A stretch of 64,000 bases of DNA from a virus, in the IMG/VR virus record IMGVR_UViG_3300042923_000524, positions 1 through 64,000 of that record. One strand, written 5' to 3'. The position numbers and the translations under genes are program-made. The notes beneath the pieces are model-generated. The model ran no database searches. It saw nothing but the letters and a program-made list of their open reading frames with translations, and was not told where the DNA came from. Below are positions 9,546 through 53,036 of this stretch, one piece after another. Within the stretch, counting starts at the first letter, position 1; each line of letters begins with the position of its first letter.

Positions 9546-11792
9546 TTGGGAGAGACAGTTGAATTTAAGGGAACGGTAGTAGCCAATCCCTACAATTCAG
9601 AAGATTATAAAATATATGGTTTATATGTGGATTATAATAAATATCCAAATATAAAAGTTAATAAATATGGTAATGTATCAATTGCAGGAAACATACATAA
9701 CCTTGAAGACGGAGTAGAATATAGCATAAAAGCCACAGAAGAATCAGGTAAGTATGGTATAACTTATAAGATAAACAATATAAAAATGGATAAACCAAAA
9801 AACGAAACATCTGTAAGATTATTTTTATCTCAAATATTAGATAGTCAACAACAAGTAGAAGAAATCATGCGTGAATATCCAGACATAATTGATAGAGTTA
9901 TTAATAATAGGCTGAAAGATGTTAATTTAAAAAAGCTCTATAATATTGGAGAGTTTAGATTTAATGTAATAAAAAGAAGAATTTTTGAGAACTTTGCATT
10001 AGCCGAATTGGTGGATGAGTTTAAAGGCTACATAGAATTTAAAATACTAAAGGTTTTATATGATAAGTATAACTCTATTGAGAGACTTAAAGAAGTGCTA
10101 GTTGACAATCCATATAAATGTCTATGTGGATTGTCACGCATAGCCTTCAAAACAGCAGATAAGATATTATTAGAGTTTAATGATGAATGTAAAAGAATGA
10201 TTGGTTTAGGTGAGAAACCACCTATAGATTTTACTGTTGATTTATTAACTTCACCACAAAGGCAAAAAGCAGCTATAATGTTTCTTTTAGAAGAGAACGA
10301 GAATAATGGCAATACAAGAATAGATATTAAAGAGTTAAGAAAACAATCAGAAACATTAGCTAATAAATGTATAGAACACTTTGTGGATATAATTAAAAAT
10401 GATGAAGATATTTATTTTGATAAAAAGTCTATGACCGTAGCCTTACAAGAAACTTTTGATACTGAGAAATACATAGCAGATAGAATTATAGAAGGCTTAA
10501 AAATAGAAAACAAATGGGAAATAAAAGAAAAAGACTATAGTAGATTAGATGATATAACTCTTACAGACCAACAAATAAAAGTTTTACCAATGGTTTGTAA
10601 TTCAAATATAAGCATTCTTAATGGTTTTGGAGGCTCTGGTAAGACTCAAACTACCAAAGCATTGATAAATATGTTAAAAGAAAATGAAAAATCATTCATA
10701 TTACTATCTCCAACAGGCAGAGCAGCAAAAGTTTTATCAGAATATACCAAAGAACGTGCCTCAACAATACATAGGGGTTTAGCTTATAATCCTTCTATGG
10801 GATGGGGTTATAATGAAGGTTGTCCATTGCCTTATGATATAGTAATAGTAGATGAATGTTCAATGATAGATGTTTTCTTAATGAGAAGATTAATTGAAGC
10901 AATAAATTTTACTAAAACAAAATTAATTATGATAGGAGATTCGGCACAGATACCATCTGTTAGTGCAGGTAATGTTTTCTTTGATTTAATAAACTCAAAA
11001 TTAACACCTATTGTTTCACTTACTCAAATATTTAGATATGGTGAAGGTGGAATATTAACTGTAGCCACTAAAACTAGAAATAGTGAGAAGTTTTTAGAAG
11101 ATTCAAGTCAACCACAATTCTTTGGTACGGATAAGGGATATATGTTTATAGCCACCCCTCAAGAAAAAGTAATAAGTAATGTGGTTGCTTTATATAAAAA
11201 GTTATTAACTAAGTATTCCAAAGAAGATATTTTAATATTATCATCTTATAATATTGGAGAGTATGGTACAGTAAATATCAATAAGTACTTACAACCTATA
11301 TCAAATCCAAATGTGTTAAAAGGTACTTATATTGAGATGGGTGACACTAAATTCTATGAAGATGATATGGTAATACAAACAGTAAATAATTATAAGGCAG
11401 TTAAATATAATTCTGATTTCTGCAATGAAGATGATACTACATTTATACCAAATGGAGAAATAGGTAAGATAATAAAAATTAGTTATAATCAAGTTATTAT
11501 TAAATTTGATGAAGAAGTTGTTTATACTAAAGCAGAATTAACACAAGTAAAATTGGCATATAGTATTAGCACATATAAAGCACAGGGCGGTCAAGCAAAA
11601 GTAGCAATTATTATAACACCAAAAGCTCACACTTTTATGTTAAATAGTAATCTAATATATGTAGCACAAACTAGAGCAAAGGAAAAGGTTTTTCATTTTG
11701 GAGAGGTGGAGACAGTAAACAGAGCTATAAAAAAGAAGGCTGATTTTAATAGAGAAACATATTTACTAGATTTGCTTAAAATAAACCATTAA
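9546..11792 (+). CDS. recD2: RecD2-like SF1B helicase
   Basis: GFGGSGKT, IVDECSM, IGDSAQIPSV, LAYSISTYKAQG, IYVAQTRA; N-terminal OB/HhH region. Confidence 0.9.
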   Translation: MGETVEFKGTVVANPYNSEDYKIYGLYVDYNKYPNIKVNKYGNVSIAGNIHNLEDGVEYSIKATEESGKYGITYKINNIKMDKPKNETSVRLFLSQILDSQQQVEEIMREYPDIIDRVINNRLKDVNLKKLYNIGEFRFNVIKRRIFENFALAELVDEFKGYIEFKILKVLYDKYNSIERLKEVLVDNPYKCLCGLSRIAFKTADKILLEFNDECKRMIGLGEKPPIDFTVDLLTSPQRQKAAIMFLLEENENNGNTRIDIKELRKQSETLANKCIEHFVDIIKNDEDIYFDKKSMTVALQETFDTEKYIADRIIEGLKIENKWEIKEKDYSRLDDITLTDQQIKVLPMVCNSNISILNGFGGSGKTQTTKALINMLKENEKSFILLSPTGRAAKVLSEYTKERASTIHRGLAYNPSMGWGYNEGCPLPYDIVIVDECSMIDVFLMRRLIEAINFTKTKLIMIGDSAQIPSVSAGNVFFDLINSKLTPIVSLTQIFRYGEGGILTVATKTRNSEKFLEDSSQPQFFGTDKGYMFIATPQEKVISNVVALYKKLLTKYSKEDILILSSYNIGEYGTVNINKYLQPISNPNVLKGTYIEMGDTKFYEDDMVIQTVNNYKAVKYNSDFCNEDDTTFIPNGEIGKIIKISYNQVIIKFDEEVVYTKAELTQVKLAYSISTYKAQGGQAKVAIIITPKAHTFMLNSNLIYVAQTRAKEKVFHFGEVETVNRAIKKKADFNRETYLLDLLKINH

Positions 11793-11820: not shown

Positions 11821-11848
11821 TTGACAAATGATTCCAAGGTGCTATAAT
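11821..11848 (+). promoter_or_regulatory. Strong sigma-A promoter heading the accessory array
   Basis: TTGACA-16bp-TATAAT with extended TGn -10. Confidence 0.85.
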
Positions 11849-11852
11849 TAAA

Positions 11853-11887
11853 GGGAGTAGAGATATAAAATCTTTATTCCCTATTTT
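11853..11887 (+). terminator. Leader hairpin / possible attenuator directly after the promoter
   Basis: GGGAGTAGAGAT-ataaa-ATCTTTATTCCC (G-U pairs) followed by TATTTT. Confidence 0.45.
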
Positions 11888-11966
11888 AATCTAAATGAAA
11901 ATAGTATTTTGAGGACATTTATAAAAAGTTATTAATAATAAATATAAAATTAAAGGAGGTAAAATA

Positions 11967-12149
11967 TTGAGTAATATTATTACTAGAAGTTATTCTGGAG
12001 CAAGAGACTTATATAATGGAATACCAAATTTAAAAAATTCAACTGTAGTTGATGTAATTTATGAAAAAGACTCGGAAGATTATAAAACAATTTTAATATT
12101 TAAAGATGTAAAAGGAAACGAACATTCAATTATTATTAAGCAAGCATAG
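11967..12149 (+). CDS. Hypothetical protein (60 aa)
   Basis: AAGGAGGT RBS, TTG start. Confidence 0.65.
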   Translation: MSNIITRSYSGARDLYNGIPNLKNSTVVDVIYEKDSEDYKTILIFKDVKGNEHSIIIKQA

Positions 12150-12169
12150 TAAAAAGGAGAAATTAAACA

Positions 12170-12331
12170 ATGAATAATAATAATAAACTCACAAACGCAG
12201 GGGATTATTTCACAGACTACGAAAAATCATTAAAAGGATTTAAACTATTTAAATGGAGAGTTTGGTGCTTCTTTGATGATATTCATGTTTGGATAGTTTG
12301 TAAGTGGTATAAGATTAGAGGTGAAAAGTAA
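12170..12331 (+). CDS. Hypothetical protein (53 aa, not in ORF track)
   Basis: AAGGAG RBS; MNNNNKLTNAGDYFTDYEKS...KIRGEK. Confidence 0.6.
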   Translation: MNNNNKLTNAGDYFTDYEKSLKGFKLFKWRVWCFFDDIHVWIVCKWYKIRGEK

Positions 12332-12332
12332 A

Positions 12333-12497
12333 TTGGCAAAAGGATATATCTGCGAAGATTGTAAAGAAGAATATTATTATGAAGATGAAATGACATTCTT
12401 AGATTGTGACGATAGTGAAATAATTATGAGTGAAGATAATTGGATTATACCAAGTAAGATAGTGTGTAATATTTGTTACAATGAAGAATCACAATAG
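12333..12497 (+). CDS. Small CxxC/CxxC zinc-binding protein (54 aa, not in ORF track)
   Basis: GAGGTG RBS, TTG start; CEDC...CNIC. Confidence 0.65.
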   Translation: MAKGYICEDCKEEYYYEDEMTFLDCDDSEIIMSEDNWIIPSKIVCNICYNEESQ

Positions 12498-12539
12498 TAT
12501 TTACATTCTATCTAAAGTTAAAGAAAGGAGGATATAAAT

Positions 12540-12761
12540 ATGGAAGTTTTAAAATCAATCGGAGAAGTATTGTGGAAACATTTTAAAATTGCAATAGAAG
12601 GTTTAATATTTATTATACTAGCTGTATTAATATTATTTTTACCAATATTTATATTGTGTAGTTTTATGACTAATCCAGTATTGATACTAATAATAGGAAT
12701 TTCAATAGGTTTAATATTAATGATAATGTTTGTTAATATTGTAGTAGAATATAGAAATTAA
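12540..12761 (+). CDS. Small membrane protein (2 TM)
   Basis: AAGGAGG RBS; two long hydrophobic stretches. Confidence 0.65.
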   Translation: MEVLKSIGEVLWKHFKIAIEGLIFIILAVLILFLPIFILCSFMTNPVLILIIGISIGLILMIMFVNIVVEYRN

Positions 12762-12783
12762 TAAGAAAGGAGGAAAAGCAACA

Positions 12784-12957
12784 ATGTTAAAAATAGAACA
12801 GTTAAATAAAATCAATACATATTTATGTTATTTAGCACATGGTTTAGATGACAATAAGCTTACTAAAGAAGCCAATAAAGAAATTATGGATTTAGGATGT
12901 AAATGCTTAGATATGATAGATGAACTTAACAAAATTAAAGAATTTACTGAGAGGTAG
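12784..12957 (+). CDS. Hypothetical protein (57 aa, not in ORF track)
   Basis: AAAGGAGG RBS; MLKIEQLNKINTYLCY... Confidence 0.6.
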   Translation: MLKIEQLNKINTYLCYLAHGLDDNKLTKEANKEIMDLGCKCLDMIDELNKIKEFTER

Positions 12958-12969
12958 AAAGGAGTAAAA

Positions 12970-13227
12970 ATGGATATTAAAAAGTATGGTAAAGAAGTTA
13001 TTGAATATATAAAAAGTTTATCGGATGAAGAATTTAGTCAATTATTAATAGAAGCAGGAATAGAGAAATGTCCTTATGAAAAAACCGACACGAAAGAATA
13101 TGACAAAGTTATGGAAAGACTTTACAACCAAGAAATAGTTGATATAGACAATGCTATAAACACATTAAAAAGAACAGTAAATAAGGAAGAATTAGAAGAA
13201 AAGTATAGTAAATTTATATCAAAATAA
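12970..13227 (+). CDS. Hypothetical protein (85 aa)
   Basis: AAGGAG RBS; stop codon lies in the 13225 site. Confidence 0.65.
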   Translation: MDIKKYGKEVIEYIKSLSDEEFSQLLIEAGIEKCPYEKTDTKEYDKVMERLYNQEIVDIDNAINTLKRTVNKEELEEKYSKFISK

Positions 13228-13258
13228 CCATGAAATAAATCTTTGGAGGAAATTAAAA

Positions 13259-13420
13259 ATGTTTAAAACTTTATTTTGTAAACATAGGTGGTTAGCAGAC
13301 GAAGCTAATCCATACAGTGATAAAAAATATTCTTGTCAATGCTCAAAATGTCTAAAATTAAAATTTATAAAGGGTAAGAAGATACCTAAAGAAAATATAC
13401 TCGATATAACATTTCTTTAA
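13259..13420 (+). CDS. Small CxH...CxxC protein (53 aa, DUF1660-like, not in ORF track)
   Basis: GGAGG RBS; MFKTLFCKHRW...CQCSKC; bounded by sites 13225 and 13412. Confidence 0.65.
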   Translation: MFKTLFCKHRWLADEANPYSDKKYSCQCSKCLKLKFIKGKKIPKENILDITFL

Positions 13421-13464
13421 AACCTTTGTTTCAAAGACAAATATAAAATAATAGGAGGAATTGA

Positions 13465-14124
13465 ATGATATATTTAATTAGTGATATACATGGAGAATAT
13501 GATTTATTTATAAAATTATTAGAACAAATCAATTTCAACACAAAAGAAGATAAGTTATATATTATAGGAGATGTGGTTGATAGAGGAAAAGATTCAATTA
13601 AAGCACTACAATATATTTATGGAAATCAAGATAGTATGATATTACTAAAAGGCAATCATGAAGATATGATGATAAATGCTTTTAAGTATTACGACAATTA
13701 TCATTGGTTTAGCAATGGAGGAAAAGTAACTTTTGATGAGTATATGAATTTATCTAAAACAGAACAAAATAAGATTTTAAAATACATAAATGAATTACCA
13801 TGTTTATTACAGATTCAAGTTGATAATAAAAAATACATATTATCTCATGCAGGAATTCAAACAGACCATAATGGTAATATAATAGAAACACAAGACCAAG
13901 ATTTTATGTTGTGGTCAAGAGAAGAATTTCTCAACGATACAGAAATTTCAAATGATGTTATGGTAGTAGTGGGTCATACCCCTACAGTATATTTACATAA
14001 AAGTGCTTTGATATGGCATAGTGAATGTGGTAAGAAAATTTGTATAGACTGTGGAGCAGTATTTGGTTATAAACTAGCGTGTTTAAGGCTTGATGATATG
14101 AAAGAATTTTATGTATCTAAATGA
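13465..14124 (+). CDS. Metallophosphoesterase (PphA/NinI-like Ser/Thr phosphatase family)
   Basis: SDIHG, IGDVVDRG, LKGNHE, HAG, GHTPT, IDCG. Confidence 0.9.
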   Translation: MIYLISDIHGEYDLFIKLLEQINFNTKEDKLYIIGDVVDRGKDSIKALQYIYGNQDSMILLKGNHEDMMINAFKYYDNYHWFSNGGKVTFDEYMNLSKTEQNKILKYINELPCLLQIQVDNKKYILSHAGIQTDHNGNIIETQDQDFMLWSREEFLNDTEISNDVMVVVGHTPTVYLHKSALIWHSECGKKICIDCGAVFGYKLACLRLDDMKEFYVSK

Positions 14125-14232
14125 CATAAAAAACACCTAATACTAACAGTCTACCCACTATAAAATAATGGCTTAAAACAGCTTTAAATCACATGTAATA
14201 ATAGGTAAAAATAAATGATAAGGAGAAATGAA

Positions 14233-14607
14233 ATGGTTAAATTATGGTTTCAACATGAAATACCAAAAGGTTATCAAGAGACTCTAAAAATGAACAATAT
14301 AGATATAAATGATGTTAAATACATAGTAGAAGCAGATAGTGGTGCTGGTGAAATAGCAAAGCAACTAGGAAGTGTAAAAGCAATATCAACTATAACTGAA
14401 CATTGGTTACATGTTGTATATGAAAAACAAAATGATATTACTATTGAAGAATTAGACTTTTCAGTAATGGTTTATAATTCTTTGAAGAGAAATGGAATTA
14501 ATTATAAATCAGAAATAGAACAAATGACAGAAAAAGATATACTTAAAATAAGGAATATGGATACAAGAAGATTATTAGAAATTAAAGAAAAAGTAAACAT
14601 TCAATAA
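14233..14607 (+). CDS. Protein with C-terminal RNA polymerase alpha-CTD-like domain
   Basis: IEELDFSVMVYNSLKRNGINYKSEIEQMTEKDILKIRNM aligns by eye with alpha-CTD IEELxLSVRSYNCLKRAGI...LLKVRNLG; RBS AAGGAG at 14220. Confidence 0.7.
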   Translation: MVKLWFQHEIPKGYQETLKMNNIDINDVKYIVEADSGAGEIAKQLGSVKAISTITEHWLHVVYEKQNDITIEELDFSVMVYNSLKRNGINYKSEIEQMTEKDILKIRNMDTRRLLEIKEKVNIQ

Positions 14608-14642
14608 AAGCATTATTTGCTTGAAACAGAAAGGAGAATTTA

Positions 14643-14954
14643 ATGAAAGAGATTTTATGTTATCAGTGTGAAATATGTGGTGAAGTACATACCAATAAAA
14701 ATGAAGCATTAAAATGTGAGGGAATTGGTAAACAAGAACCACTTGCTAAAGTAGGAGACTTAATAAACTATAATTACAATGTTAGTGGATTTGAATGTGT
14801 TGGTACTATCAAAGTTAGTAAAATAATACAAGAAGGACATTTTATTAAATATAAAATCAAATCCCAAGATTACGAAGGTAGATGGATTAATGGGTTTTAT
14901 GGAACTGAGTATATTTGGGGTAATAATGAATTTATAAGAAGAACAACTCAATGA
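14643..14954 (+). CDS. Hypothetical protein with CxxC (103 aa)
   Basis: AAAGGAG RBS; YQCEICG...ALKCE. Confidence 0.65.
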   Translation: MKEILCYQCEICGEVHTNKNEALKCEGIGKQEPLAKVGDLINYNYNVSGFECVGTIKVSKIIQEGHFIKYKIKSQDYEGRWINGFYGTEYIWGNNEFIRRTTQ

Positions 14955-14999
14955 CCTCAAAATGGAAATTCTAACGAAATGAAAGGAGAAAAGTAATAT

Positions 15000-15188
15000 A
15001 TGAAAATTATAAGAAATCAATTTGGAATTGCTAAATTTAAAGTTGAAAATGAAGAGGAACGTAATATAGTTAATAGTTATTTAAAATTGTTAGAAACGGC
15101 ACTAAATGATAATGATGGGGATATTGATTATTATATGTGTTGGGATAGTATTCAAAATGATATATTTTATCATTCAAGTTCTGAATAA
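15000..15188 (+). CDS. Hypothetical protein (62 aa)
   Basis: AAAGGAG RBS; single ORF between two sites. Confidence 0.65.
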   Translation: MKIIRNQFGIAKFKVENEEERNIVNSYLKLLETALNDNDGDIDYYMCWDSIQNDIFYHSSSE

Positions 15189-15241
15189 ATCTCAACTGAA
15201 TCAATGTTTCATTTAGATATTAATTAAGAAAGGATGATAAA

Positions 15242-15466
15242 ATGAAAAAACACAACATACAACTAGGTTACAAAGATTTACTTGCGATTAAACATAGCCT
15301 TAAAAGAACAATCAAAGCAAAGAATTTTACACTATTAAACTATAATGAATCTGGTCTACATATTAAAGAAATAGAACAATATAAAGCAGACATAGAGCAT
15401 GAAACTAAACTACTAGAAAGAATTACAGAAAAAATTAATTATATTAAAGACTTATATAAAATTTAG
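15242..15466 (+). CDS. Hypothetical protein (74 aa)
   Basis: AAAGGA RBS. Confidence 0.6.
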   Translation: MKKHNIQLGYKDLLAIKHSLKRTIKAKNFTLLNYNESGLHIKEIEQYKADIEHETKLLERITEKINYIKDLYKI

Positions 15467-15494
15467 TGCATATAATGTAAAAGGAGGAATGGAA

Positions 15495-15638
15495 TTGTTA
15501 GAATGTACATATTGTAAAACGCAACTTCTATATCAATATAAATTATCTAAAACAGAAGAATTGTATCAATGTCCAGAATGTAAGAGAGAGTTCATGTATG
15601 ATGCTGAAGATAATTATTTTAGTGAGTTGGAAGATTAA
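15495..15638 (+). CDS. Zinc-ribbon miniprotein (47 aa, not in ORF track)
   Basis: AAGGAGG RBS; (M)LECTYCK...YQCPECKREF. Confidence 0.65.
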   Translation: MLECTYCKTQLLYQYKLSKTEELYQCPECKREFMYDAEDNYFSELED

Positions 15639-15676
15639 ATAACCATAAAAACAATATTTGGTCGAAAGGAGAAGTT

Positions 15677-15949
15677 ATGTTTAGATTAGAAGAAGGTAGA
15701 GAAAAGAAAGGTGGAGTAAACCCACCACCTACAACACCCAAACCAAACTTTCATCCACCTGCTCAAAAGTCTAATAATTATTTTAAATTGTCAGATATTG
15801 AAAGTTGTGCAATGTCAAAAGAAGAAATGTGGAAAACATTAAATGGTAAAACAGTAAAGTGTATACATACTCAAGATGGTGATTTTCATATGTTTGCAGT
15901 GCAAGATTTAGAGTCTAAAAAAGTATATATGCTTGATAATTCAAGATAA
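15677..15949 (+). CDS. Hypothetical protein with Pro-rich N-terminus (90 aa)
   Basis: AAAGGAG RBS; KKGGVNPPPTTPKP. Confidence 0.65.
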   Translation: MFRLEEGREKKGGVNPPPTTPKPNFHPPAQKSNNYFKLSDIESCAMSKEEMWKTLNGKTVKCIHTQDGDFHMFAVQDLESKKVYMLDNSR

Positions 15950-15977
15950 AATTGTTGTTTGGATGAAAGGAGAAACA

Positions 15978-16136
15978 ATGGAAGGATGTAAGGGATATTC
16001 ATATTGGACTGATAATGGAACGGAATATGATTGTGAATATGAGTTTGCAGGAGATATAGATTGTGGAGATTGTATCTTTAACGTTTATGGAGGTACACAA
16101 GACCCTAGAATAAATAACTATGAAAATGAAGAATAG
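15978..16136 (+). CDS. Cys-containing miniprotein (52 aa)
   Basis: Start moved to ATG 15978 after the AAAGGAG that follows site 15941; CKG...YDCEY...CGDC. Confidence 0.6.
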   Translation: MEGCKGYSYWTDNGTEYDCEYEFAGDIDCGDCIFNVYGGTQDPRINNYENEE

Positions 16137-16228
16137 TTCAAGTGCTACAACCATTGTAATTGCTTGATTGTAGAAATGAAATATTTTGATGAAATGAGAC
16201 CTTTATCTAGATATGAAAGGAGATTATT

Positions 16229-16411
16229 ATGTTAAAAATCGAATGTAATTGTGGTCAAAAGGGTTACTTAGAATATATGTATGATGAAAATGATATGATT
16301 ACTTTATCATTAGACATTGACACTATGAACGTTAATTATAGTGAATATTCTGGATTGCAGTTTAAGTGTCCTAAATGTAAAAAAACTTATGATATTATAA
16401 GAGTTCAATAA
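16229..16411 (+). CDS. Zinc-ribbon miniprotein (60 aa)
   Basis: CNCG...CPKC; AAAGGAG RBS. Confidence 0.65.
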   Translation: MLKIECNCGQKGYLEYMYDENDMITLSLDIDTMNVNYSEYSGLQFKCPKCKKTYDIIRVQ

Positions 16412-16450
16412 GTTTCATCAGAAACTAGATTTTATTGAAAGGAGAGAAAC

Positions 16451-16603
16451 ATGTTAAAAATATTAATACTTAATAATCAAAAGGAAGATGGAAGATTTGT
16501 AATATTAGGTTTTGAAATATTTGGTTGGGGATTCGGATTAGGTGCATCCACAGGAAAATATTTAGATACTTTTGCAATAGGTATTGTGACTTATATATTA
16601 TAA
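16451..16603 (+). CDS. Hydrophobic miniprotein (50 aa, not in ORF track)
   Basis: AAAGGAG RBS directly after site 16413; MLKILILNNQKEDGRFVILGFEIFGWGFGLG. Confidence 0.55.
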   Translation: MLKILILNNQKEDGRFVILGFEIFGWGFGLGASTGKYLDTFAIGIVTYIL

Positions 16604-16640
16604 ACAATATAAAATTAATAAATAGGAAGTGATGTTTAAA

Positions 16641-17021
16641 ATGACGGAATGGAGAAAATTGACATCACGAATGACTAAGTGGGAAGTAAAATACCTACAG
16701 GAATTAATAAATAATAACAAGTTTGATTATACTTATTACTCATACATAAGGTTGAATGAACGTGAAATACCAGAAACATCAGTTGAAAAGACAATTAAAT
16801 ATGGAAACATAATAGAGTTCCATTACAAAGATGGGGATGCTAGAGTGTTATTGAGGGGTAGGTCAAATGTAGATGGATATTCTATCTGTGTTGTTTTGAG
16901 CCTAAGTAAGAAACAAATTATTACAATCTACAAGAATGAGTTTATGGATAACCACGATACATTACACAATGAGATTTATAATAATAAAATAGATATAATG
17001 AAATATATAAAAGTAAGTTAA
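16641..17021 (+). CDS. DUF4258-like (BrnT/RelE-fold) protein
   Basis: YSYIRLNEREI...IKYGNIIE...RVLLR...ICVV...IITIYKN pattern. Confidence 0.55.
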   Translation: MTEWRKLTSRMTKWEVKYLQELINNNKFDYTYYSYIRLNEREIPETSVEKTIKYGNIIEFHYKDGDARVLLRGRSNVDGYSICVVLSLSKKQIITIYKNEFMDNHDTLHNEIYNNKIDIMKYIKVS

Positions 17022-17032
17022 GGAGGAAGGAA

Positions 17033-17392
17033 ATGAATAATAGAAAACAAAAAGTATTTAGTATGTTAGATTCACTTACTAAAAAGGAAATCTATGATTA
17101 CATAAAGGAACGAAATATAATAGCAAAAGGCATGAAAGAAGATTTAAGTAGGATTGCTAAAACAAAACAACCATCTCATTTTGAAACTTTATCAAATAAT
17201 ATTACTGGTAATCTAAATGAGATTCTGAGTAATCATTATAGATTAGGCGAAGCTTACATAGTCGCTTTTGTACTAGAGTGTTTTTATGACAATAAATATA
17301 AAATAAAAGATTTACAATGGTACTTAAAAGAAATGATAAAAGCAGATGAAACATTAAAAGAATATGTTTATGAAATAATGAAAGATTTTTAA
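17033..17392 (+). CDS. Hypothetical protein (119 aa)
   Basis: AAGGAGG RBS. Confidence 0.6.
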   Translation: MNNRKQKVFSMLDSLTKKEIYDYIKERNIIAKGMKEDLSRIAKTKQPSHFETLSNNITGNLNEILSNHYRLGEAYIVAFVLECFYDNKYKIKDLQWYLKEMIKADETLKEYVYEIMKDF

Positions 17393-17438
17393 GTTTTAAT
17401 AGAATTAGATTTCTATTGAGATATTGAAAGGAGAAAGT

Positions 17439-17663
17439 ATGTTTGAAAAGAATCCTAAATATACAATGAAAAATTTTCATCAATTAGTTAATCAAGAAAT
17501 CATTACAGTTGAATTAACAAAAGATGAATTACATTGTTTACAAAACTTTCTAGATGAATATGTAAGTATGTTTAAAAGACCCTCCTTGCAACTAGGAACA
17601 CACAAAGATGTTATAAATGCGTTATATAAGCTAGGTATGGTTAATGTAAAAGATATTGTTTAA
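17439..17663 (+). CDS. Hypothetical protein (74 aa)
   Basis: AAAGGAG RBS; start moved to ATG 17439. Confidence 0.6.
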   Translation: MFEKNPKYTMKNFHQLVNQEIITVELTKDELHCLQNFLDEYVSMFKRPSLQLGTHKDVINALYKLGMVNVKDIV

Positions 17664-17711
17664 TATGTAAATAAAATATAACTTTGATTGAATTATTAGA
17701 AAGGAGGATTT

Positions 17712-17942
17712 ATGGATAAATTACAGCAGGTAGAAAATGAATTAATCATATTACAAAGCGAAATTAAAAAATTAAAAAGTAAAGAAGATATCTTGCTAAA
17801 AGAAAGAAGAACAATTATTCAATCTAATTGTAAACATGAATTTGAATGGACTGGTTATTGTGAGGATGATTTAGAAAATAATATTATAGAATATCAAATG
17901 GAGTGTAAAAAATGTTATTTAATTGAATGGGATAAAGTTTAA
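17712..17942 (+). CDS. Coiled-coil plus CxH/CxxC protein (76 aa)
   Basis: CKHEFE...ECKKC; AAAGGAGG RBS. Confidence 0.65.
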   Translation: MDKLQQVENELIILQSEIKKLKSKEDILLKERRTIIQSNCKHEFEWTGYCEDDLENNIIEYQMECKKCYLIEWDKV

Positions 17943-17996
17943 ACCGAATTTAGCTTTGATTAAAATACATTTAATAAAGAAAGGTAGGAACTATAT

Positions 17997-18212
17997 TTGT
18001 TTTATGTAATAAGTAAGAATCCAGAATCAATATTTGAAGAAGAAGGTAAAATTAGAACTGCTAAAAAAGTATATTCAATACAATATAAACATGGTTATCC
18101 ATTTTTCACTTTTTATGAAAAAGGTCAATGGATAATTAGAAGTGCTAAACATTATATACCTATAGATGAAAATAGAATTAGATGTGGGCATGTATATTTA
18201 GATAAAATGTAG
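17997..18212 (+). CDS. Hypothetical protein (71 aa)
   Basis: AAAGGTAGG RBS, TTG start; stop codon lies in site 18197. Confidence 0.6.
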   Translation: MFYVISKNPESIFEEEGKIRTAKKVYSIQYKHGYPFFTFYEKGQWIIRSAKHYIPIDENRIRCGHVYLDKM

Positions 18213-18234
18213 TTTCTATTGAAAGGAGATTTTT

Positions 18235-18483
18235 ATGAAAATAAAAACTAAATCAGGTAAAGTTTATGAGCTTACAGACATAAGAGAAAAGACATCAAAA
18301 GAATTTTACGCTTATTGGAATGATTATTATATAGGGATAACTAAAGAAAAACCTATAAATAAAGGTGATAAAAGATGGTATATTCAATGTACTCACCCAG
18401 ACGGATGTTATATCTATGATGGTTATTTTTATGGAACATTTACCGAAGCACTAAAAGATGTATTTTGGAACATTGAACTTTAA
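18235..18483 (+). CDS. Hypothetical protein (82 aa)
   Basis: AAAGGAG RBS. Confidence 0.65.
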   Translation: MKIKTKSGKVYELTDIREKTSKEFYAYWNDYYIGITKEKPINKGDKRWYIQCTHPDGCYIYDGYFYGTFTEALKDVFWNIEL

Positions 18484-18517
18484 ATTGAATTAAGATTTCA
18501 AAGAAAGGAGAATTATA

Positions 18518-18808
18518 TTGAGAGAATTAAGAGATGGTGAACCATGTAGTCATAAGGGATGTTTGCATCATATTTCTCATCCATGTGAAGGCTGTGGTAG
18601 AATTGCAGGAAAATATACTTTAGAATCAGCTATAGAATCATATAAGTTTGGATTTGCAGTTACATATGATGGAGATAACCATGAAATAAAATATGGCACA
18701 AAATGTAATCATTGTGGTAAATATTTTGAATCTTATAGTTTAGATATATATTGTTTAGATTGCTGTATTCAATATATAGCTAATTTAAAATCAGTAACAA
18801 GACTATAA
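18518..18808 (+). CDS. Cys/His-rich protein (96 aa)
   Basis: GEPCSHKGCLHHISHPCEGCG...CNHC...CLDC. Confidence 0.65.
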   Translation: MRELRDGEPCSHKGCLHHISHPCEGCGRIAGKYTLESAIESYKFGFAVTYDGDNHEIKYGTKCNHCGKYFESYSLDIYCLDCCIQYIANLKSVTRL

Positions 18809-18841
18809 AAGAATCATTTGCTTGAAAGTTAAGGAGGATTT

Positions 18842-19093
18842 ATGGAAGTTAAAAGACCTACTTATGATAGACCAGAAGAAAATTTAAAACCAACAAAAGT
18901 TGAATTTTGGACTTATGGTTGTCAAAATGGTACAATTCAAATTTGGTTTGATAAAGGCACTAGATATATAGAAATTGGTGATAAAGATTTTGAATGTATG
19001 AGAAGTTGGGTTGATATGGATAAAAAGATGAAAATATACGAAGAAATTCAAAAATCCAAAACGCTACAACCATTGGAAACACTAGGTTCTTAA
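18842..19093 (+). CDS. Hypothetical protein (83 aa)
   Basis: AAGGAGG RBS. Confidence 0.65.
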   Translation: MEVKRPTYDRPEENLKPTKVEFWTYGCQNGTIQIWFDKGTRYIEIGDKDFECMRSWVDMDKKMKIYEEIQKSKTLQPLETLGS

Positions 19094-19134
19094 AATCAAA
19101 TATTTCGATAAAAGAGGAATTTGGAGGACAATTA

Positions 19135-19524
19135 ATGTGGAAAAAGAAAATTAGAATCACACTAAATCAAGAAGATATTATTCCTTCAGCTAATGAATTA
19201 TTTAATATACATAATTATATAGTTTTAAACAAAGCACAAAAATTAGCTGAAAAATACATAAGGCTTATATCTAATAGAGTTAAATATAGAAGTGAACATG
19301 GAGTTTTGTGGGAGTCTTTCTCAAGACACAGTGAAAAAGAAGGAGAAGAAATTTTTAGATTCTTTTCGTTTTGTGATTCTGGCTATACAAGTGAAATAAT
19401 TAAATTATGTGAGCAATTTGTATTTGCTTACTTTAAGGAATTAGGATATTTAATAGAGTGGAGAGATAGTAGTGTATGTAGGAACGAAAAAGTAATTTAT
19501 ATATCTTGGGATAAATCACAATAA
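19135..19524 (+). CDS. Hypothetical protein (129 aa)
   Basis: GGAGG RBS. Confidence 0.65.
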   Translation: MWKKKIRITLNQEDIIPSANELFNIHNYIVLNKAQKLAEKYIRLISNRVKYRSEHGVLWESFSRHSEKEGEEIFRFFSFCDSGYTSEIIKLCEQFVFAYFKELGYLIEWRDSSVCRNEKVIYISWDKSQ

Positions 19525-19590
19525 AAAAGTTATTTCATAGAAACTTGATACAATTGGCACTTTTCTTAAATAGTGCAGGAGGTGATACAA

Positions 19591-20178
19591 ATATATAAAC
19601 GACCACAAAATGAAACAGAAACGCATTTTCTACTAAAAGAAATATCTAAATATATATTATTTGGATGGGGATATAATAGAATAGGGACTGAAGTCAATGG
19701 AATGTATTCTTATGACATTAAAGAGAATGGTAAAGACTTTAAGAGTATTATTGATGCGGTTGGTGTAAAAAGATGTAGACAGAAGAAGTTAAAAGATGGT
19801 CAATCGCTATACTATTATGATGTAAAAGGAATAGAAGCCAAAGCAACATTAGCAGACTTTAAAAATGGTTTCTGTGCAGCACCTATGTACACATATATTA
19901 TTGCTCCTATTAATACTATACCAATAGAATTAATCCCTGATAAGATAGGATTTATAGAAGTGGATTTAGATAACTTTAAACTACCGAAGAAATCGCAGAT
20001 GATATCAGATATGAAAGGTGTTAAATTAGTCAAGAGAGCCTACAAAAGACTGGATAGAAGATTTAAAACAGAAGAGGATTATAGAGAATGGTGTTCTGAA
20101 GTCTTAGATGATGTTGCATATAGAAGTACATCTGAGTTATTATTCTGGAGAAACTATATTGAGTTTAGTAAAAAGTAA
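19591..20178 (+). CDS. MmcB-like PD-(D/E)XK nuclease-fold protein (probable ATA start)
   Basis: IIDAVG...GIEAKATLADF...YIIAP; AGGAGGTG lies 6 nt before in-frame ATA 19591. Confidence 0.55.
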   Translation: MYKRPQNETETHFLLKEISKYILFGWGYNRIGTEVNGMYSYDIKENGKDFKSIIDAVGVKRCRQKKLKDGQSLYYYDVKGIEAKATLADFKNGFCAAPMYTYIIAPINTIPIELIPDKIGFIEVDLDNFKLPKKSQMISDMKGVKLVKRAYKRLDRRFKTEEDYREWCSEVLDDVAYRSTSELLFWRNYIEFSKK

Positions 20179-20207
20179 ATTTATAATAACAAATATAAAA
20201 TTATTAG

Positions 20208-20235
20208 TTGACAACTGAAAAATGCATGGTAAAAT
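20208..20235 (+). promoter_or_regulatory. Sigma-A promoter
   Basis: TTGACA-16bp-TAAAAT with extended TGn; same geometry as 11821. Confidence 0.75.
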
Positions 20236-20279
20236 GAATATAAGAGGTTAAGTTAAAGATTGAAGGAAGGAGGAAATAT

Positions 20280-20558
20280 ATGGTTAGGATAATAGAAACG
20301 AATTTATCCATAGATAATTTAGGAGCAATCCAAGACCATCAATCAAGAGTAATAGAAACGGAAAGTTGGATGTTATATGTTGATGAATTTATACATGGTA
20401 AAACAATTATCAGAAACTCATGTATAGGTAGCCTACATGGTGCTACTATTCCTAGAGAAGCAAAGATTGAGAATCTTACATATGATGAAAAGCATTTAAT
20501 GTGTGATATTACTAATTGGAAAAGTATAAAGAGTAAAAAGTTTGCTTATTTAGTTTAA
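20280..20558 (+). CDS. Hypothetical protein (92 aa)
   Basis: AAGGAGG RBS. Confidence 0.65.
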   Translation: MVRIIETNLSIDNLGAIQDHQSRVIETESWMLYVDEFIHGKTIIRNSCIGSLHGATIPREAKIENLTYDEKHLMCDITNWKSIKSKKFAYLV

Positions 20559-20699
20559 ACACTTTTTGTAACACATTTGTAACATGAGAATCAAAGCAAA
20601 CGAGAGCATAAACGAGAAAACGAGAGATACAAAAGCCAAAAATGACCATAAAATGTCTCTTTCATCTAAACTTCAAAATCTAGGAAAGGAGTAATTAAT

Positions 20700-20840
20700 A
20701 TGAAGGGAATAGAAATTAAAGTCGTTGACAATAGGAAAGATAGTTTTAAGATTTACTATATCAAACCTACTGAAGACGAATACAAAGCAATTTCAAAGAT
20801 ACTTGATATTAAAGAAATAGAGCCAGATTGGGAAGATTAG
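20700..20840 (+). CDS. Hypothetical miniprotein (46 aa, not in ORF track)
   Basis: AAAGGAG RBS; MKGIEIKVVDNRKDS...EPDWED. Confidence 0.55.
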   Translation: MKGIEIKVVDNRKDSFKIYYIKPTEDEYKAISKILDIKEIEPDWED

Positions 20841-20925
20841 AATAAGAGATAAAGGGTAGAGAGATTTTAATTAAGGTTAAGGGTTGTATATGATTAATAT
20901 AAAAATAATATTTAGGAGGTTAAAA

Positions 20926-21162
20926 ATGAAAGATTTTTTTAAAAAGTTTGGATACATATTTAATTTAGCTTTAGATGGTTGGTTGATAGGTTTATGGGTA
21001 GGACATTTTATACAGCTTTGTAGAGGTATTGAATTAGACAAAGTTACTATAGGAGTTTCTTTGATAATTACTATCGGATTTTTAATCAAGATGCTCATAA
21101 AAGATTTAACAAAGTCAAATATAGTTGATATAAAAATAAATATTAAAGGAGAAATAGAATAA
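20926..21162 (+). CDS. Small 2-TM membrane protein
   Basis: AGGAGGT RBS before ATG 20926; two hydrophobic helices. Confidence 0.6.
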   Translation: MKDFFKKFGYIFNLALDGWLIGLWVGHFIQLCRGIELDKVTIGVSLIITIGFLIKMLIKDLTKSNIVDIKINIKGEIE

Positions 21163-21566
21163 TGAGTTTATTAATGATGGTTTTAGTTATTGGTTTTATA
21201 ATAGGGATTGCATTATTTGTAACTGGATTAATATGTTGGATTGATTGGTCTCTGATATTAATAGGAATTATAATCATGTTGGTTTGTGGGTTTGGAGCAA
21301 GTGAAATTGTAGAAAATGCTCCTTATAGAGATATAAATAGTAATAATATAGTAGTTGAATATGCAAGGGTTAATGAAGTTACTGACAAAACAATTGTTCT
21401 AGATAATACTAAATATGTAACTGAAAATAATAAAGCCTTTAATGAAACTTTTAATTTGAAATATCCAATAAGATTAAGTGATTTTAGTATAGGAGACATT
21501 GTAAAATATCAACTTATATCTACAGACTTTGATGACTACTTAATTAGAATTGAAAAGGTTCAATAA
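21162..21566 (+). CDS. Membrane-anchored protein (2 N-terminal TM)
   Basis: Hydrophobic N-terminus; AAGGAG RBS. Confidence 0.6.
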   Translation: MSLLMMVLVIGFIIGIALFVTGLICWIDWSLILIGIIIMLVCGFGASEIVENAPYRDINSNNIVVEYARVNEVTDKTIVLDNTKYVTENNKAFNETFNLKYPIRLSDFSIGDIVKYQLISTDFDDYLIRIEKVQ

Positions 21567-21602
21567 AAGACAAATTTGATGGAAATATTAAGGAGTATAA
21601 TA

Positions 21603-22546: not shown

Positions 22547-24631
22547 ATGCAGGTAATTAAGAGAACAAACGAACCAGTAGATTTTAGTAAAGATAAGATT
22601 ATAAATGCTATAACCAGAGCTATGGATGAAACAGAATTAGGTGTTAATATTGAATTAGCAGTAGAAATTGCCGATAATATAGAAGATGATATTAATGATT
22701 TAGATATAATGCCTACAGTTGAAACTATTCAGAATATGGTTGAAGAGTATTTAATGGATAGCAGGAAGGATGTAGCCAAACAATATATTCTATACAGAGA
22801 AGAAAGAAATAGATTAAGAAATAATCCACAATGGGAAATGACAGAATTACAAAAAGCAATATGGGAAAATAAATATAGATATAAAAATGAATCTTTTGAT
22901 GGATTTTTAAATAGAGTTAGTAATGGAAATGAGCATATCAAAAAGCTTATGATACATAAAAAATTATTACCTGCTGGACGAATATTAGCAGGTAGGGGTA
23001 CGCATAAAGATGGTAAAAAAATAACTTTATCGAATTGCTTTGTATTACCATCACCAGAAGATAATATTGAATCAATATTTGATACTGCAAAATATATGGC
23101 TAGAACATACTCATATGGTGGCGGTGTAGGAATTGACATCAGTAAATTAAGACCTAAGAAATCAAAAGTAAATAATGCAGCCAAAACTACTTCTGGTGCA
23201 ATCAGCTTTATGGATTTATATTCACTTACTACAGAGTTAATTGGACAGAGTGGACGTAGAGGGGCATTAATGATTACACTAGATTGTTCACATCCTGATT
23301 TGTTAGATTTTATTAATTGTAAAACTGATTTAAACAAAGTTACTAGAGCTAATATATCTATTAAGGTTTCAGATGATTTTATGAATGCTGTTTTAGATAA
23401 TGCAGATTGGAAACTTCATTTTACAATAGAAGAAACAGGCGAAGTAATAGAAAAGATTGTAAAAGCACAAGAGATATATCATATATTCTGTAAGATGGAT
23501 TGGAATTATGCAGAACCCTCTTTAGTTTATTGGAGTAGAATAAACAATTGGAATCTGTTAAGTGAAGATGATGAATTTGAATATGTTGGACTTAATCCCT
23601 GTGCTGAAGAACCACTCCCAGAATTCGGAAGTTGTAATTTAATATCATTAAACCTTGCCGAATTTATTATTAATCCATTTACAGATAATGCACGTTTTGA
23701 TTATGATAGATTTAACGAAGCAGTTAAACACACAGTTGTATATATGAATGATTTACTTGATGAAGCTATAGAAAATAATCTATATCCTTTAGAAAAACAA
23801 AAGCAATCAGTAATTGATTGGAGACAAATAGGAATCGGAATTATGGGCATCGCTGATATGCTTATAAAGATGAATATAAAATATGGAAATAAAGAATCAT
23901 TAGAATTATGTGATAAGATTGGTTTTGAAATGATTAATTCAGCTTTACAACAATCAGCACTATTATCAAAAGAAATAGGTACTTACGAAAAATATAAAGA
24001 AGATGCAGTATTAAAAAGTGAATTCTTAAAGTACAATGCGTATCCAGAAACAATACAAATGATTAAAGAATATGGATTAAGAAATTCTCAAGTTCTTACT
24101 ATTGCACCAACAGGCTCACTATCCACAATGTTAGGTATATCTGGTGGAATAGAACCGATTTATCAAATATCATATACTAGAAAAACAGAATCATTACATG
24201 ACGAAGATACATATTACAAAGTGTTTACCCCTATAGCAAAAGAGTATATGGATAAATTTGATATTAAAACAGAAGAAGAATTACCTGATATATTTATTAC
24301 TGCAAATGACTTAAATTATTATGATAGAGTTGATATGCAATCTGTTTGGCAAAATCATATAGACGCTTCAATATCCTCTACAGTTAATTTACCATTTGCA
24401 ACTTCTGTAAAACAAGTTGAAGATTTATACATATATGCTTGGGAAAAAGGTTTAAAAGGCATTACAATATTCAGAGATGGTTGTAAAAGAAGTGGAGTTT
24501 TAACGACCGACAAAACAGAAGAACATGAGAAAATTGAAGGTGCTAAATGCCTTGAGTGTGGCTCACAATCATTGATTAGAACAAATTCTTGTGTATTATG
24601 TTTAGAATGTGGGCATTCACCATGCAGTTAG
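22547..24631 (+). CDS. nrdJ: Class II (B12-dependent) ribonucleotide reductase with N-terminal ATP cone
   Basis: ATP cone VIKR...F..DKI; LSNCF, GGGVG, RRGA, NPCAE...CNL, TIAPTG; C-terminal Zn-ribbon Cys; no beta subunit nearby. Confidence 0.85.
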   Translation: MQVIKRTNEPVDFSKDKIINAITRAMDETELGVNIELAVEIADNIEDDINDLDIMPTVETIQNMVEEYLMDSRKDVAKQYILYREERNRLRNNPQWEMTELQKAIWENKYRYKNESFDGFLNRVSNGNEHIKKLMIHKKLLPAGRILAGRGTHKDGKKITLSNCFVLPSPEDNIESIFDTAKYMARTYSYGGGVGIDISKLRPKKSKVNNAAKTTSGAISFMDLYSLTTELIGQSGRRGALMITLDCSHPDLLDFINCKTDLNKVTRANISIKVSDDFMNAVLDNADWKLHFTIEETGEVIEKIVKAQEIYHIFCKMDWNYAEPSLVYWSRINNWNLLSEDDEFEYVGLNPCAEEPLPEFGSCNLISLNLAEFIINPFTDNARFDYDRFNEAVKHTVVYMNDLLDEAIENNLYPLEKQKQSVIDWRQIGIGIMGIADMLIKMNIKYGNKESLELCDKIGFEMINSALQQSALLSKEIGTYEKYKEDAVLKSEFLKYNAYPETIQMIKEYGLRNSQVLTIAPTGSLSTMLGISGGIEPIYQISYTRKTESLHDEDTYYKVFTPIAKEYMDKFDIKTEEELPDIFITANDLNYYDRVDMQSVWQNHIDASISSTVNLPFATSVKQVEDLYIYAWEKGLKGITIFRDGCKRSGVLTTDKTEEHEKIEGAKCLECGSQSLIRTNSCVLCLECGHSPCS

Positions 24632-27746: not shown

Positions 27747-28265
27747 ATGTTATTGAAGAATTCTGGCAAAATTTTCGAGGACTCTTTCAGAGACAGCATA
27801 GACCAAGAAAAGATATATTATTACAGACTTCGTGACCCTGCAAGTTCATTTGGAGGCAAACAAGAAGGTTTAAGATTTTCTATTACTAACGATTATGATT
27901 GTTTTTTTTATATATATCCGAATTTTTTTCCCTTTGAATTGAAATCTACCAAAGGAACATCATTCAGTATTCAAAAAGAAAAAACAGATAAAGCAAAGAT
28001 GATAAAACTTCATCAAATAGAAGGACTTACAAAAGCAAGTAAACATGAAGGTGTATATGCTGGATTGGTTTTAAACTTTAGAGATACAGAACATACATAT
28101 TGGTTAAACATCAAAGATTTTAATATATTTAATGAACAGACAGAAAAGAAGTCAATCAATGAAGATGATGTAGTAAAACATAATGGGATAATAGTTCCTC
28201 AGAGATTAAAAAAAGTTAAGTACACTTATGACATTGGTAAGATGATAAGTTTTATCAAAGATTAG
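27747..28265 (+). CDS. recU: RecU-like Holliday junction resolvase
   Basis: NSGKIFE, DC, FELKSTKG, HQIEGL. Confidence 0.75.
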   Translation: MLLKNSGKIFEDSFRDSIDQEKIYYYRLRDPASSFGGKQEGLRFSITNDYDCFFYIYPNFFPFELKSTKGTSFSIQKEKTDKAKMIKLHQIEGLTKASKHEGVYAGLVLNFRDTEHTYWLNIKDFNIFNEQTEKKSINEDDVVKHNGIIVPQRLKKVKYTYDIGKMISFIKD

Positions 28266-51543: not shown

Positions 51544-52572
51544 TTATAAGTCACTCAATCCTTTTTTCTCTACTTCCTTCATGCCATTTTCATCAAAGTA
51601 TTTGCCCAGTTCTTCATCAACTTCAGTATCATTATAAATTGACACCATATCTGTTGACTCCCAACCTACTATACTTTTTATAACTTCCGCAGGAATATTA
51701 TTTTTACACATCTCAGTAGTATAGAAATGTCTTAAACTATGCCAGTAAAAATCAACACCTAATATTTGTGAGAACGTCATTGCATAACTATCTAATAAAG
51801 TTGTGTCTGCTGGCTTATTTGATTTACCATATGAACTCCAAAACAACTCTTCACCTATAATTCCTAATTCTTCTCTTTGTTTCATCCACAAATCAAAATA
51901 GGGTTTAAATTTACCAACTATAATATATTTAAAAATTAACTTACCCTTAGAACTTCTGCCTTTAGTTTTTATCTTTTCTGGTGTTTTATATAAAGAACCA
52001 TACATAATATTTTCATCTTTAAAATAACTTACTTTAAATCTAAGCAATTCTGATTTTCTAGCTCCACTTGCGACCCCTAAAGCAAAAGCACAAGCTTGTT
52101 GATATTTCTTATTTTCCATAAGATAATCTAATAAAAATTGCACTTGCTCATCTGTTAAAACAGTCTTTTCTCTTACTGCTTGTTTAACTGGTGCTGGGAC
52201 TTTATTGATTATATTTCTGAAAGCAGGATATAAATCATCCATCATTGACTCTATAAAATTTGACATACTGCTTATAGAAGACTTTAATCTTCTTATTCTA
52301 CTAGAACTATGTTTCAACTCATTTAATAAATAATTTTGGTATTTCATTATATCTCTTTTATTTACCTCATAAAATATCTTATTATTATTCTTTTGTAGAT
52401 TCCAGACATAAAAAATCCTAATATCATCGTGATATGATTCAATTGTTCTAGGACTCTTATCAACCGATTGAAGATACTCTATAAAATCGTTAAGTAAATC
52501 TTTATTCTCTTGACAAACTTTACTATATAATTCCTCGGTTACTATATTATTATATATTGATGCTCTTGCCAT
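51544..52572 (-). CDS. Xer/Cre-like tyrosine recombinase (core-binding + catalytic domains, no arm-binding domain)
   Basis: KSPRTIESY..DI..F core-binding domain; catalytic set intact: GARKSEL, KTKG, HSLRH, VGW, SIYN. Confidence 0.9.
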   Translation of the reverse strand: MARASIYNNIVTEELYSKVCQENKDLLNDFIEYLQSVDKSPRTIESYHDDIRIFYVWNLQKNNNKIFYEVNKRDIMKYQNYLLNELKHSSSRIRRLKSSISSMSNFIESMMDDLYPAFRNIINKVPAPVKQAVREKTVLTDEQVQFLLDYLMENKKYQQACAFALGVASGARKSELLRFKVSYFKDENIMYGSLYKTPEKIKTKGRSSKGKLIFKYIIVGKFKPYFDLWMKQREELGIIGEELFWSSYGKSNKPADTTLLDSYAMTFSQILGVDFYWHSLRHFYTTEMCKNNIPAEVIKSIVGWESTDMVSIYNDTEVDEELGKYFDENGMKEVEKKGLSDL

Positions 52573-53008: not shown

Positions 53009-53036
53009 TTTAAACCAAACCAAAATTTGGTTGAAA
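53009..53036. repeat. Most symmetric copy of the 11-6-11 site
   Basis: TTTAAACCAAA-CCAAAA-TTTGGTTGAAA; arms 10/11 self-complementary. Confidence 0.75.

Follow-up and report, generated by a model that had tools for sequence, protein, structure and literature searches.

A 28-bp dyad-symmetric box at accessory-gene junctions of an SPbeta-like phage looks like a joint for gene exchange

The first 64,000 nucleotides of the metagenomic viral record IMGVR_UViG_3300042923_000524, referred to here as the window, contain an array of about 35 small genes, all of them on the + strand, which lies between the gene for a RecD-like helicase (9546-11792) and that for a ribonucleotide reductase (22547-24631). 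The complete record has 137,947 bp, a G+C content of 28% and direct terminal repeats. A short palindromic sequence, the junction box, recurs between the small genes, and the locus raises the question of whether this box is a genuine element, what reads it and what it does to the genes around it. An earlier reading of the window (the original prediction) described 11-6-11 palindromes of dif/lox geometry and proposed either a platform for capturing and shuffling single-gene cassettes or an operator array for a dimeric repressor of the MrpR/YopR type. The present analysis confirmed that the box is real, and in phage SPbeta the same kind of box marks where relatives swapped neighbouring genes, so that it looks like a joint for gene exchange.

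The six 28-mers quoted in the original prediction were all present, letter for letter, at 13412-13439, 14599-14626, 16413-16440, 17394-17421, 18197-18224 and 21558-21585, and a matrix built from them had junctions among its top 19 matches. In 26 junctions on which it had not been trained, this matrix recovered 6 to 7 more sites, compared with 0.1 to 0.25 in shuffles that left the stop codon and the Shine-Dalgarno (SD) sequence in place; none of 500 shuffles reached the observed number, and the boxes therefore lie at junctions far above the level of shuffled controls. Genomes of like composition and gene style contained 6 to 20 times fewer matrix matches. A helicase-based search of viral, metagenome and genome collections returned one usable relative (G001, about 80% nucleotide identity), which shares 6 to 8 of the approximately 35 small genes, and a megablast of this genome against the phage collection gave no match. 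A palindrome-constrained expectation-maximization (EM) search, started de novo from random seeds, recovered TTTCnATAAAA-N6-TTTTATnGAAA in about half of 120 junctions with a log-likelihood of 363, while the same search on G001 and on the Clostridioides phage LIBA6276 gave 68 to 78, the boxes of LIBA6276 being missed by junction EM though an exact-pattern count detects them. EM without the palindromic constraint returned mostly low-complexity AT motifs at the junctions, and exact counts of gapped palindromes were uninformative in this genome because the arms are degenerate.

The resulting consensus, TTTCAATAAAA-N6-TTTTATTGAAA, is dyad-symmetric and spans 28 bp in an 11-6-11 arrangement. When the two arm matrices were slid apart, 64 matches were obtained at a spacing of 6 and only 0 to 4 at each of the spacings 2 to 5 and 7 to 12, a strictness which, together with the dyad symmetry, bears out the recombinase-like geometry originally claimed. 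Inverted repeats of the generic 11-N-11 form that match at 8 or more of 11 positions showed a flat frequency over spacings of 0 to 14, and thus the case rests on the shared sequence and not on palindromy alone; arm complementarity was 8 to 9 of 11 in the six quoted sites and as low as 4 of 11 in other members of the family. T is preferred at position 12 and A at position 17, which leaves a truly free centre of 4 to 6 bp. All 64 centres in the genome differ from one another, which is only a hint of avoidance, as about two coincidences would be expected by chance according to rough arithmetic. The junction box is real, and its explanation as a chance by-product of AT-rich junctions was refuted.

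At a threshold of at least 14 bits, 17 boxes were counted between 11.9 and 21.6 kb, where they occupy 16 of 34 junctions, and 64 in the 138-kb genome. The original figure of about 21 sites in 11890-21585 was thereby lowered (19 sites pass at 11 bits), as was that of 13 single-gene intervals out of 20: a single gene was found in eight of 16 intervals (nine of 18 at the 11-bit threshold), two genes in four, three in three and six in one. The placement of the box within junctions was described correctly. In about 40 of 48 cases the upstream gene ends with a stop codon at box positions -4 to +7, and in nine cases this stop is the TAA that occupies positions 7-9; the right-arm GAAA often serves also as the 5' extension of the SD sequence GAAAGGAG, which made up most of the k-mer enrichment at junctions. 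It was likewise true that replisome junctions have no site (zero boxes in the block 1-11.8 kb), and the structural genes carry few.

The genes between boxes share one orientation and lack promoters of their own, the 11 kb of the array region having no more than two strong promoters of the sigma-A type. The first (11821-11848, + strand) is, as predicted, a perfect TTGACA-16-TATAAT with TG (12/12 plus TG), and the second (20208-20235, + strand) scores 11/12 plus TG. No terminator was found between array genes or at the boxes; with two strong promoters only, the array genes thus form two long operons. A sigma-A promoter or a terminator as the identity of the box was ruled out by sequence reading and by the promoter and terminator scan.

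The kind of molecule in which the box acts was addressed by folding and covariation. RNA folding of 16 boxes gave a mean z-score of -0.31, with a predicted hairpin in the box at 17394 alone (-10.6 kcal/mol, z -3.4), and a search of Rfam gave no match. The arms do not covary: the two arms of a site formed 6.34 pairs on average, compared with 6.49 when arms were permuted between sites, and allowing G-U pairs changed nothing. The base frequencies of the columns mirror each other across the centre, and sites outside the training set favour neither orientation. Null folding, missing covariation and symmetric columns together point to a double-stranded site that is probably read by a two-fold symmetric protein.

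The homologues of YonO, MrpR and YomM and the matching synteny indicate, on sequence grounds, that the phage is SPbeta-like. Its YonO-type single-subunit RNA polymerase (genome positions 70957-73548, - strand) has 51% identity to SPbeta YonO over 843 residues and is the protein best conserved with SPbeta, the dUTPase (68%) excepted. An MrpR/YopR homologue (PDB 8a0a, E 2e-22) is encoded at genome positions 110366-111331, and the gene order of Sak4-like protein, helicase, DnaE, small genes and ribonucleotide reductase agrees with that of SPbeta. When the same EM search was applied to SPbeta junctions, it yielded TCTnnATAAAA-N6-TTTTATnnAGA at 33 to 36 sites, and the exact pattern TAAAA-N(d)-TTTTA occurred 34 times in SPbeta at d=6 and 0 to 3 times at any other spacing. 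The inner arms, ATAAAA-N6-TTTTAT, are common to the de novo consensus sequences of both phages, whereas the outer arms differ (TCT..AGA in SPbeta, TTTC..GAAA in this phage). Given these inner arms, their strict 6-bp spacing and the placement directly after the stops of small accessory genes, the boxes are, as far as sequence can tell, this phage's version of SPbeta-type A4-N6-T4 junction boxes. LIBA6276 contains 19 sites at d=6, of which 18 stand at junctions beside a ribosome-binding site, and G001 has 6 to 10 boxes. No description of these boxes was found in the searchable SPbeta literature.

The role of the box was approached by comparing the arrays between yorM and nrdI of SPbeta, phi3T, SPR, Goe11, Goe12 and Goe13. 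Boxes contained 33 of the 148 breakpoints in homology, whereas random placement put 3.6 there on average and no more than 11 in any of 1000 trials. Breakpoints occurred at 38 of 41 junctions with a box and at 25 of 72 without one (odds ratio 24, P 7e-10), a Fisher test that overstates independence because the six phages are related, which counts against the exchange reading. The statement that boxes fence off genes is supported to the extent that in SPbeta relatives gene replacements begin and end at them. The same box, with an identical centre, was found joined to different left or right neighbours across SPbeta-family phages, and a single-gene unit of 326 bp, exactly bounded by two boxes, is common to phi3T and SPR. 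All 78 homology blocks are colinear (78/78), and thus modules have been replaced in place and never moved.

The breakpoints also have a characteristic position within the box. Block starts fell at positions -1 to 1 of the box in 30 cases and at 5-8 in 14, block ends at 22-24 in 22 cases and at 28-31 in 14, and neither starts nor ends fell at 9-21. The central 17 bp, comprising the inner arms and the centre, are always common to both partners, while each outer arm goes with its own flank. In the comparison of this genome with G001, one of 15 block ends lies in a box, one block starts at the right edge of a box, one ends 5 nt past a box and a fourth end is 11 nt short of one; with three ends inside a box or within 5 nt of one, the comparison is suggestive only.

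The explanation that we tentatively favour is recombinase-driven, addressed exchange at the boxes. Each box would be bound by a two-fold symmetric phage protein through its two 11-bp arms, which enclose a centre of fixed 6-bp length that differs from box to box; placed right after stop codons within two long early operons, and around accessory genes only, the boxes would act as position-addressed joints between related phages. In a cell that harbours two related genomes, a crossover within boxes of the same address would swap the module on one side and keep the gene order. One recombinase monomer would occupy each arm, and exchange would require identical centres. That the boxes are bound by protein, that the binder is a recombinase and that exchange is the selected function are steps that we infer.

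The likeliest catalyst would be an orphan phage tyrosine recombinase. The first candidate, a YomM-like protein of Cre/Xer type (51544-52572, - strand), contains the Pfam Phage_integrase domain plus a SAM-like domain, has 30% identity to SPbeta YomM (E 2e-30) and shows the R, HxxRH and Y motifs in the alignment; its gene lies in the tail module, 30 kb from the array. The second candidate is a compact Xer-like protein of 291 residues (genome positions 101360-102235, + strand), in which the R, HxxRH and Y motifs were also found; it has 53% identity to a G001 protein and matches a LIBA6276 protein. Together with the MrpR-like gene, the genome has three genes of the tyrosine-recombinase fold. The phage recombinases scored far under the cut-offs of the XerC, XerD and XerS models, and with the integron-integrase model the recombinase reached 19.7 bits against a cut-off of 265.

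Several observations speak for a recombinase. The 11-6-11 design is combined with a restriction of boxes to accessory arrays, and intact tyrosine recombinases (YomM in SPbeta, two in this phage) have no assigned role in the literature examined. The genome's best palindrome (53009-53036, 10/11, 22.3 bits) lies 440 bp upstream of the YomM-like gene. The shared central 17 bp, with each outer arm following its own flank, are as expected from Cre/Xer-type strand exchange at the centre. Other observations weigh against this explanation. Short-homology recombination within identical stretches of 17-28 bp predicts the breakpoint pattern equally well, about half of the SPbeta-family breakpoints lie away from boxes, and the breakpoint evidence stems from SPbeta relatives, this genome being compared with one distant relative. 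MT835481, which encodes the closest homologue of the 51544-52572 recombinase (45% identity), has zero matrix matches and four exact A4-N6-T4 sites; SEP9, with a 30%-identical homologue, has ten exact sites of which half lie within genes; and G001 lacks a YomM-like gene yet has its 6 to 10 boxes.

The explanation that ranks next, and that is a serious possibility, is that the boxes are regulatory or architectural sites of a dimeric phage protein that is not a recombinase, for example a transcription roadblock or insulator in early operons. Gene swaps would then stop at boxes only because these are the sole conserved sequence between variable genes, and the phage's short-homology recombination (Sak4-like protein, 948-1916; RecU-like protein, 27747-28265) would use them by accident. 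The breakpoint positions fit such homology-driven crossing-over as well, and the box counts in MT835481, SEP9 and G001 gave no clear co-occurrence with the recombinase. The boxes sit tightly between a stop codon and the next SD sequence, in operons without internal promoters or terminators, and the outer arms differ between SPbeta and this phage as they do in co-evolving pairs of protein and site. Dispersed operator sets are also known, including SPBRE (PMC10516654) and the 20-30 stoperators per genome of Cluster A mycobacteriophages (PMC6550527). Like the boxes, stoperators are phage-specific sites, present in tens in short intergenic spaces all along the operons, whose consensus varies among related phages. 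They are, however, asymmetric 13-bp sequences that follow the direction of transcription and bind a monomeric repressor (PMC6550527, PMC9283540), whereas the boxes span 28 bp, are dyad-symmetric without orientation bias and avoid core gene blocks. Replisome genes have no boxes and structural genes nearly none, though these too would need silencing. A 28-bp span with a free centre is moreover unusual for helix-turn-helix dimers, and no candidate regulator was found.

The repressor named in the original prediction fits this role poorly. SPBRE, derived from the ten ChAP-seq target genes of PMC10516654 as CAAATACAAATAATATGTAT, is a different and asymmetric sequence, and the operator-array alternative is unlikely in the MrpR/YopR form in which it was put. 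In phi3T, too, the repressor's box lacks symmetry, and a monomer binds it (bioRxiv 10.1101/2025.11.27.690993). SPBRE and Phi3TRE, the operators of MrpR and SroF (PMC10516654, bioRxiv 10.1101/2025.11.27.690993), resemble the junction boxes in belonging to the same phage family, in being repeated and AT-rich and in being bound by a protein of recombinase fold, but SPBRE occurs at about 10 promoters, where its protein binds as a monomer, and the junction boxes are more numerous. Two candidate users of the box were set aside: the MrpR-like repressor, as the SPbeta MrpR targets share another motif, and the YonO RNA polymerase, as YonO initiates from a single promoter (PMC5467207).

A separate element of this genome probably fills the place of SPBRE. 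The sequence AATATAAAAT occurs in 41 copies genome-wide, and the ACAAATATAAAATTA element, which resembles the start of SPBRE, lies beside promoters, both array promoters included, or just before ribosome-binding sites. A 27-nt repeat of this type (family D19), a probable operator of the MrpR-like repressor and not a junction box, lies at 11926-11952 (+ strand) and again at 20177-20203 (+ strand), just upstream of the -35 element. By analogy, ACAAATATAAAATTA is probably this phage's counterpart of SPBRE. In SPbeta (NC_001884), positions 76165-76215 upstream of aimR contain a junction box, 3 nt and then SPBRE, and TAGA, which forms a box's outer right arm, stands before several further copies of SPBRE; box and SPBRE may form composite units.

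The platform of the original prediction, in which circular single-gene cassettes are excised and inserted at boxes as in integrons or pdif modules and read from the promoter at 11821, is improbable. The genes between boxes are indeed promoterless and co-oriented, half of the intervals contain a single gene and an exact box-gene-box unit exists in phi3T and SPR. However, every one of the 64 boxes has a centre of its own, whereas the two flanking an inserted circle would have the same one, and the colinearity of all 78 blocks means that no module was displaced in any relative. The score of 19.7 bits is remote from an integron integrase, and the gene of the recombinase is in the tail module, 30 kb from the array. 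Integron attC sites recombine as folded single strands, with structure conserved and sequence not. Arrays of attC sites resemble the boxes in that promoterless, co-oriented genes are each followed by an imperfect palindrome starting at the stop codon, but in the boxes it is the sequence that is conserved and not the pairing, and attC-like covariation of a folded strand is missing. Of the integron hallmarks, no IntI, attI or cassette mobility was found.

The pdif sites of Acinetobacter plasmids are similar to the dif site of the host, whose XerC/XerD presumably acts on them (PMC6449649). Like the boxes and other Xer core sites, they have two 11-bp arms around a 6-bp centre, and many of them are found in accessory regions, where pairs of sites enclose adaptive genes. 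The arms of the boxes appear to match no known dif site, and the boxes are far denser, with one every first to third gene; their modules stay in position, unlike pdif modules, which occur in different ones, and the phage itself would have to encode any enzyme. Among published concepts, the PeSLs of T4-type phages (PMC2839356) come nearest; they are also short repeated motifs flanking small non-essential genes in variable regions. PeSLs consist of a strong promoter and a terminator stem-loop, act by ordinary homologous recombination between copies and can yield mini-circles (PMC2839356, PMC4122927). The boxes have no promoter, terminator or hairpin, and since each centre is unique, the copies within one genome are not interchangeable, unlike those of PeSLs.

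An RNA-level element, such as an intercistronic hairpin that hides part of the SD sequence until the terminating ribosome opens it in translational coupling, or a processing or terminator signal, is very improbable: the stop codon in or beside the left arm, the right-arm GAAA that belongs to the SD sequence and the hairpin of the 17394 box would suit it, but the mean folding score, the lack of covariation with G-U pairs included, the empty Rfam search and a symmetry independent of the direction of transcription do not. The idea that there is no element at all, and that the pattern merely arises where a TAA stop, runs of A and of T and an extended SD sequence meet in AT-rich junctions, can practically be dismissed, for although generic inverted repeats are not commoner at spacing 6 and k-mer enrichment is chiefly that of GAAAGGAG, the shuffles that kept stop and SD sequence, the genomes of like composition and the strict spacing all contradict it.

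The individual boxes of the array, listed without strand and with bit scores from the symmetric matrix unless stated, begin in the 5' leader of the first operon with TCTAAATGAAA-atagta-TTTTGAGGACA (11890-11917, 18.4 bits), where the homology with G001 stops at box position 18. The box at 13225-13252 (18.4 bits) has the stop codon at box positions 1-3; among the quoted boxes, that at 13412 is directly followed by AATATAAAAT, that at 14599 has its stop TAA at positions 7-9, that at 16413 scores 21.1 bits and is overrun by 5 nt by the G001 block 16202-16445, that at 17394 is the sole copy folding as a stable hairpin and that at 18197 carries a stop TAG within its centre. The remaining junction boxes are at 14952-14979 (20.1 bits), 15640-15667 (20.6 bits; the right arm continues into the SD sequence), 15941-15968 (18.1 bits), 17666-17693 (17.1 bits), 17938-17965 (16.4 bits), 18800-18827 (14.8 bits; direct-repeat family D1/D3), 19103-19130 (24.3 bits; SD sequence inside the right arm) and 19516-19543 (18.4 bits; a G001 homology block begins at box position 27), and one box (20643-20670, 18.7 bits) lies in the 141-nt gap 3' of the second promoter. 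Two weak candidates were also noted, at 15190-15217 (12 bits with the first matrix, passing the 11-bit threshold only) and at 18479-18506 (14.5-15.3 bits with the first matrix; the refined matrix scores it under 14 bits).

Further features were observed in and around the array. Immediately 3' of the first promoter, a 13-pair hairpin followed by a T-run (11852-11882, + strand) is conserved in G001 and could be a leader terminator or attenuator heading the 27-gene operon. The gene-free 141-nt gap 3' of the second promoter contains three direct AACGAGAG-like repeats (20590-20630). The accessory genes fenced by boxes include those for a NinI-like serine/threonine phosphatase (13465-14124, + strand) and a DUF4258 protein (16632-17021, + strand). 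The C-terminal half of a 124-residue protein (14233-14607, + strand) is the C-terminal domain of an RNA polymerase alpha subunit (PF03118, E 3e-16), and such a free phage domain could compete for UP elements or activators. An open reading frame for 201 amino acids (19573-20178, + strand), with 74% identity in G001, lacks a canonical pair of start codon and SD sequence; its sole in-frame GTG sits within the SD-like GCAGGAGGTG, and it may use an unusual start codon.

Phage genomes are mosaic, and the origin of their sharp module boundaries is debated between random illegitimate joining followed by selection and conserved linker sequences. In the arrays described here, the boundaries of accessory modules coincide with a defined, countable DNA box of recombinase-like geometry and position-specific centre, and the presence of the box in SPbeta, which is genetically tractable, makes the question of mosaic boundaries directly testable. 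It is conceivable, though rather doubtful, that SPbeta-like phages, SPbeta included, carry a built-in, recombinase-driven cassette exchange, a natural counterpart of heterospecific lox/FRT sites, in which dozens of boxes with 6-bp addresses would allow accessory slots to be swapped between co-resident relatives while the gene order stays undisturbed. If a recombinase is involved, the boxes would represent a natural system of addressed cassette exchange and a possible tool for phage engineering; if none is, they would constitute a new and abundant class of putative protein-binding site in a model phage family.

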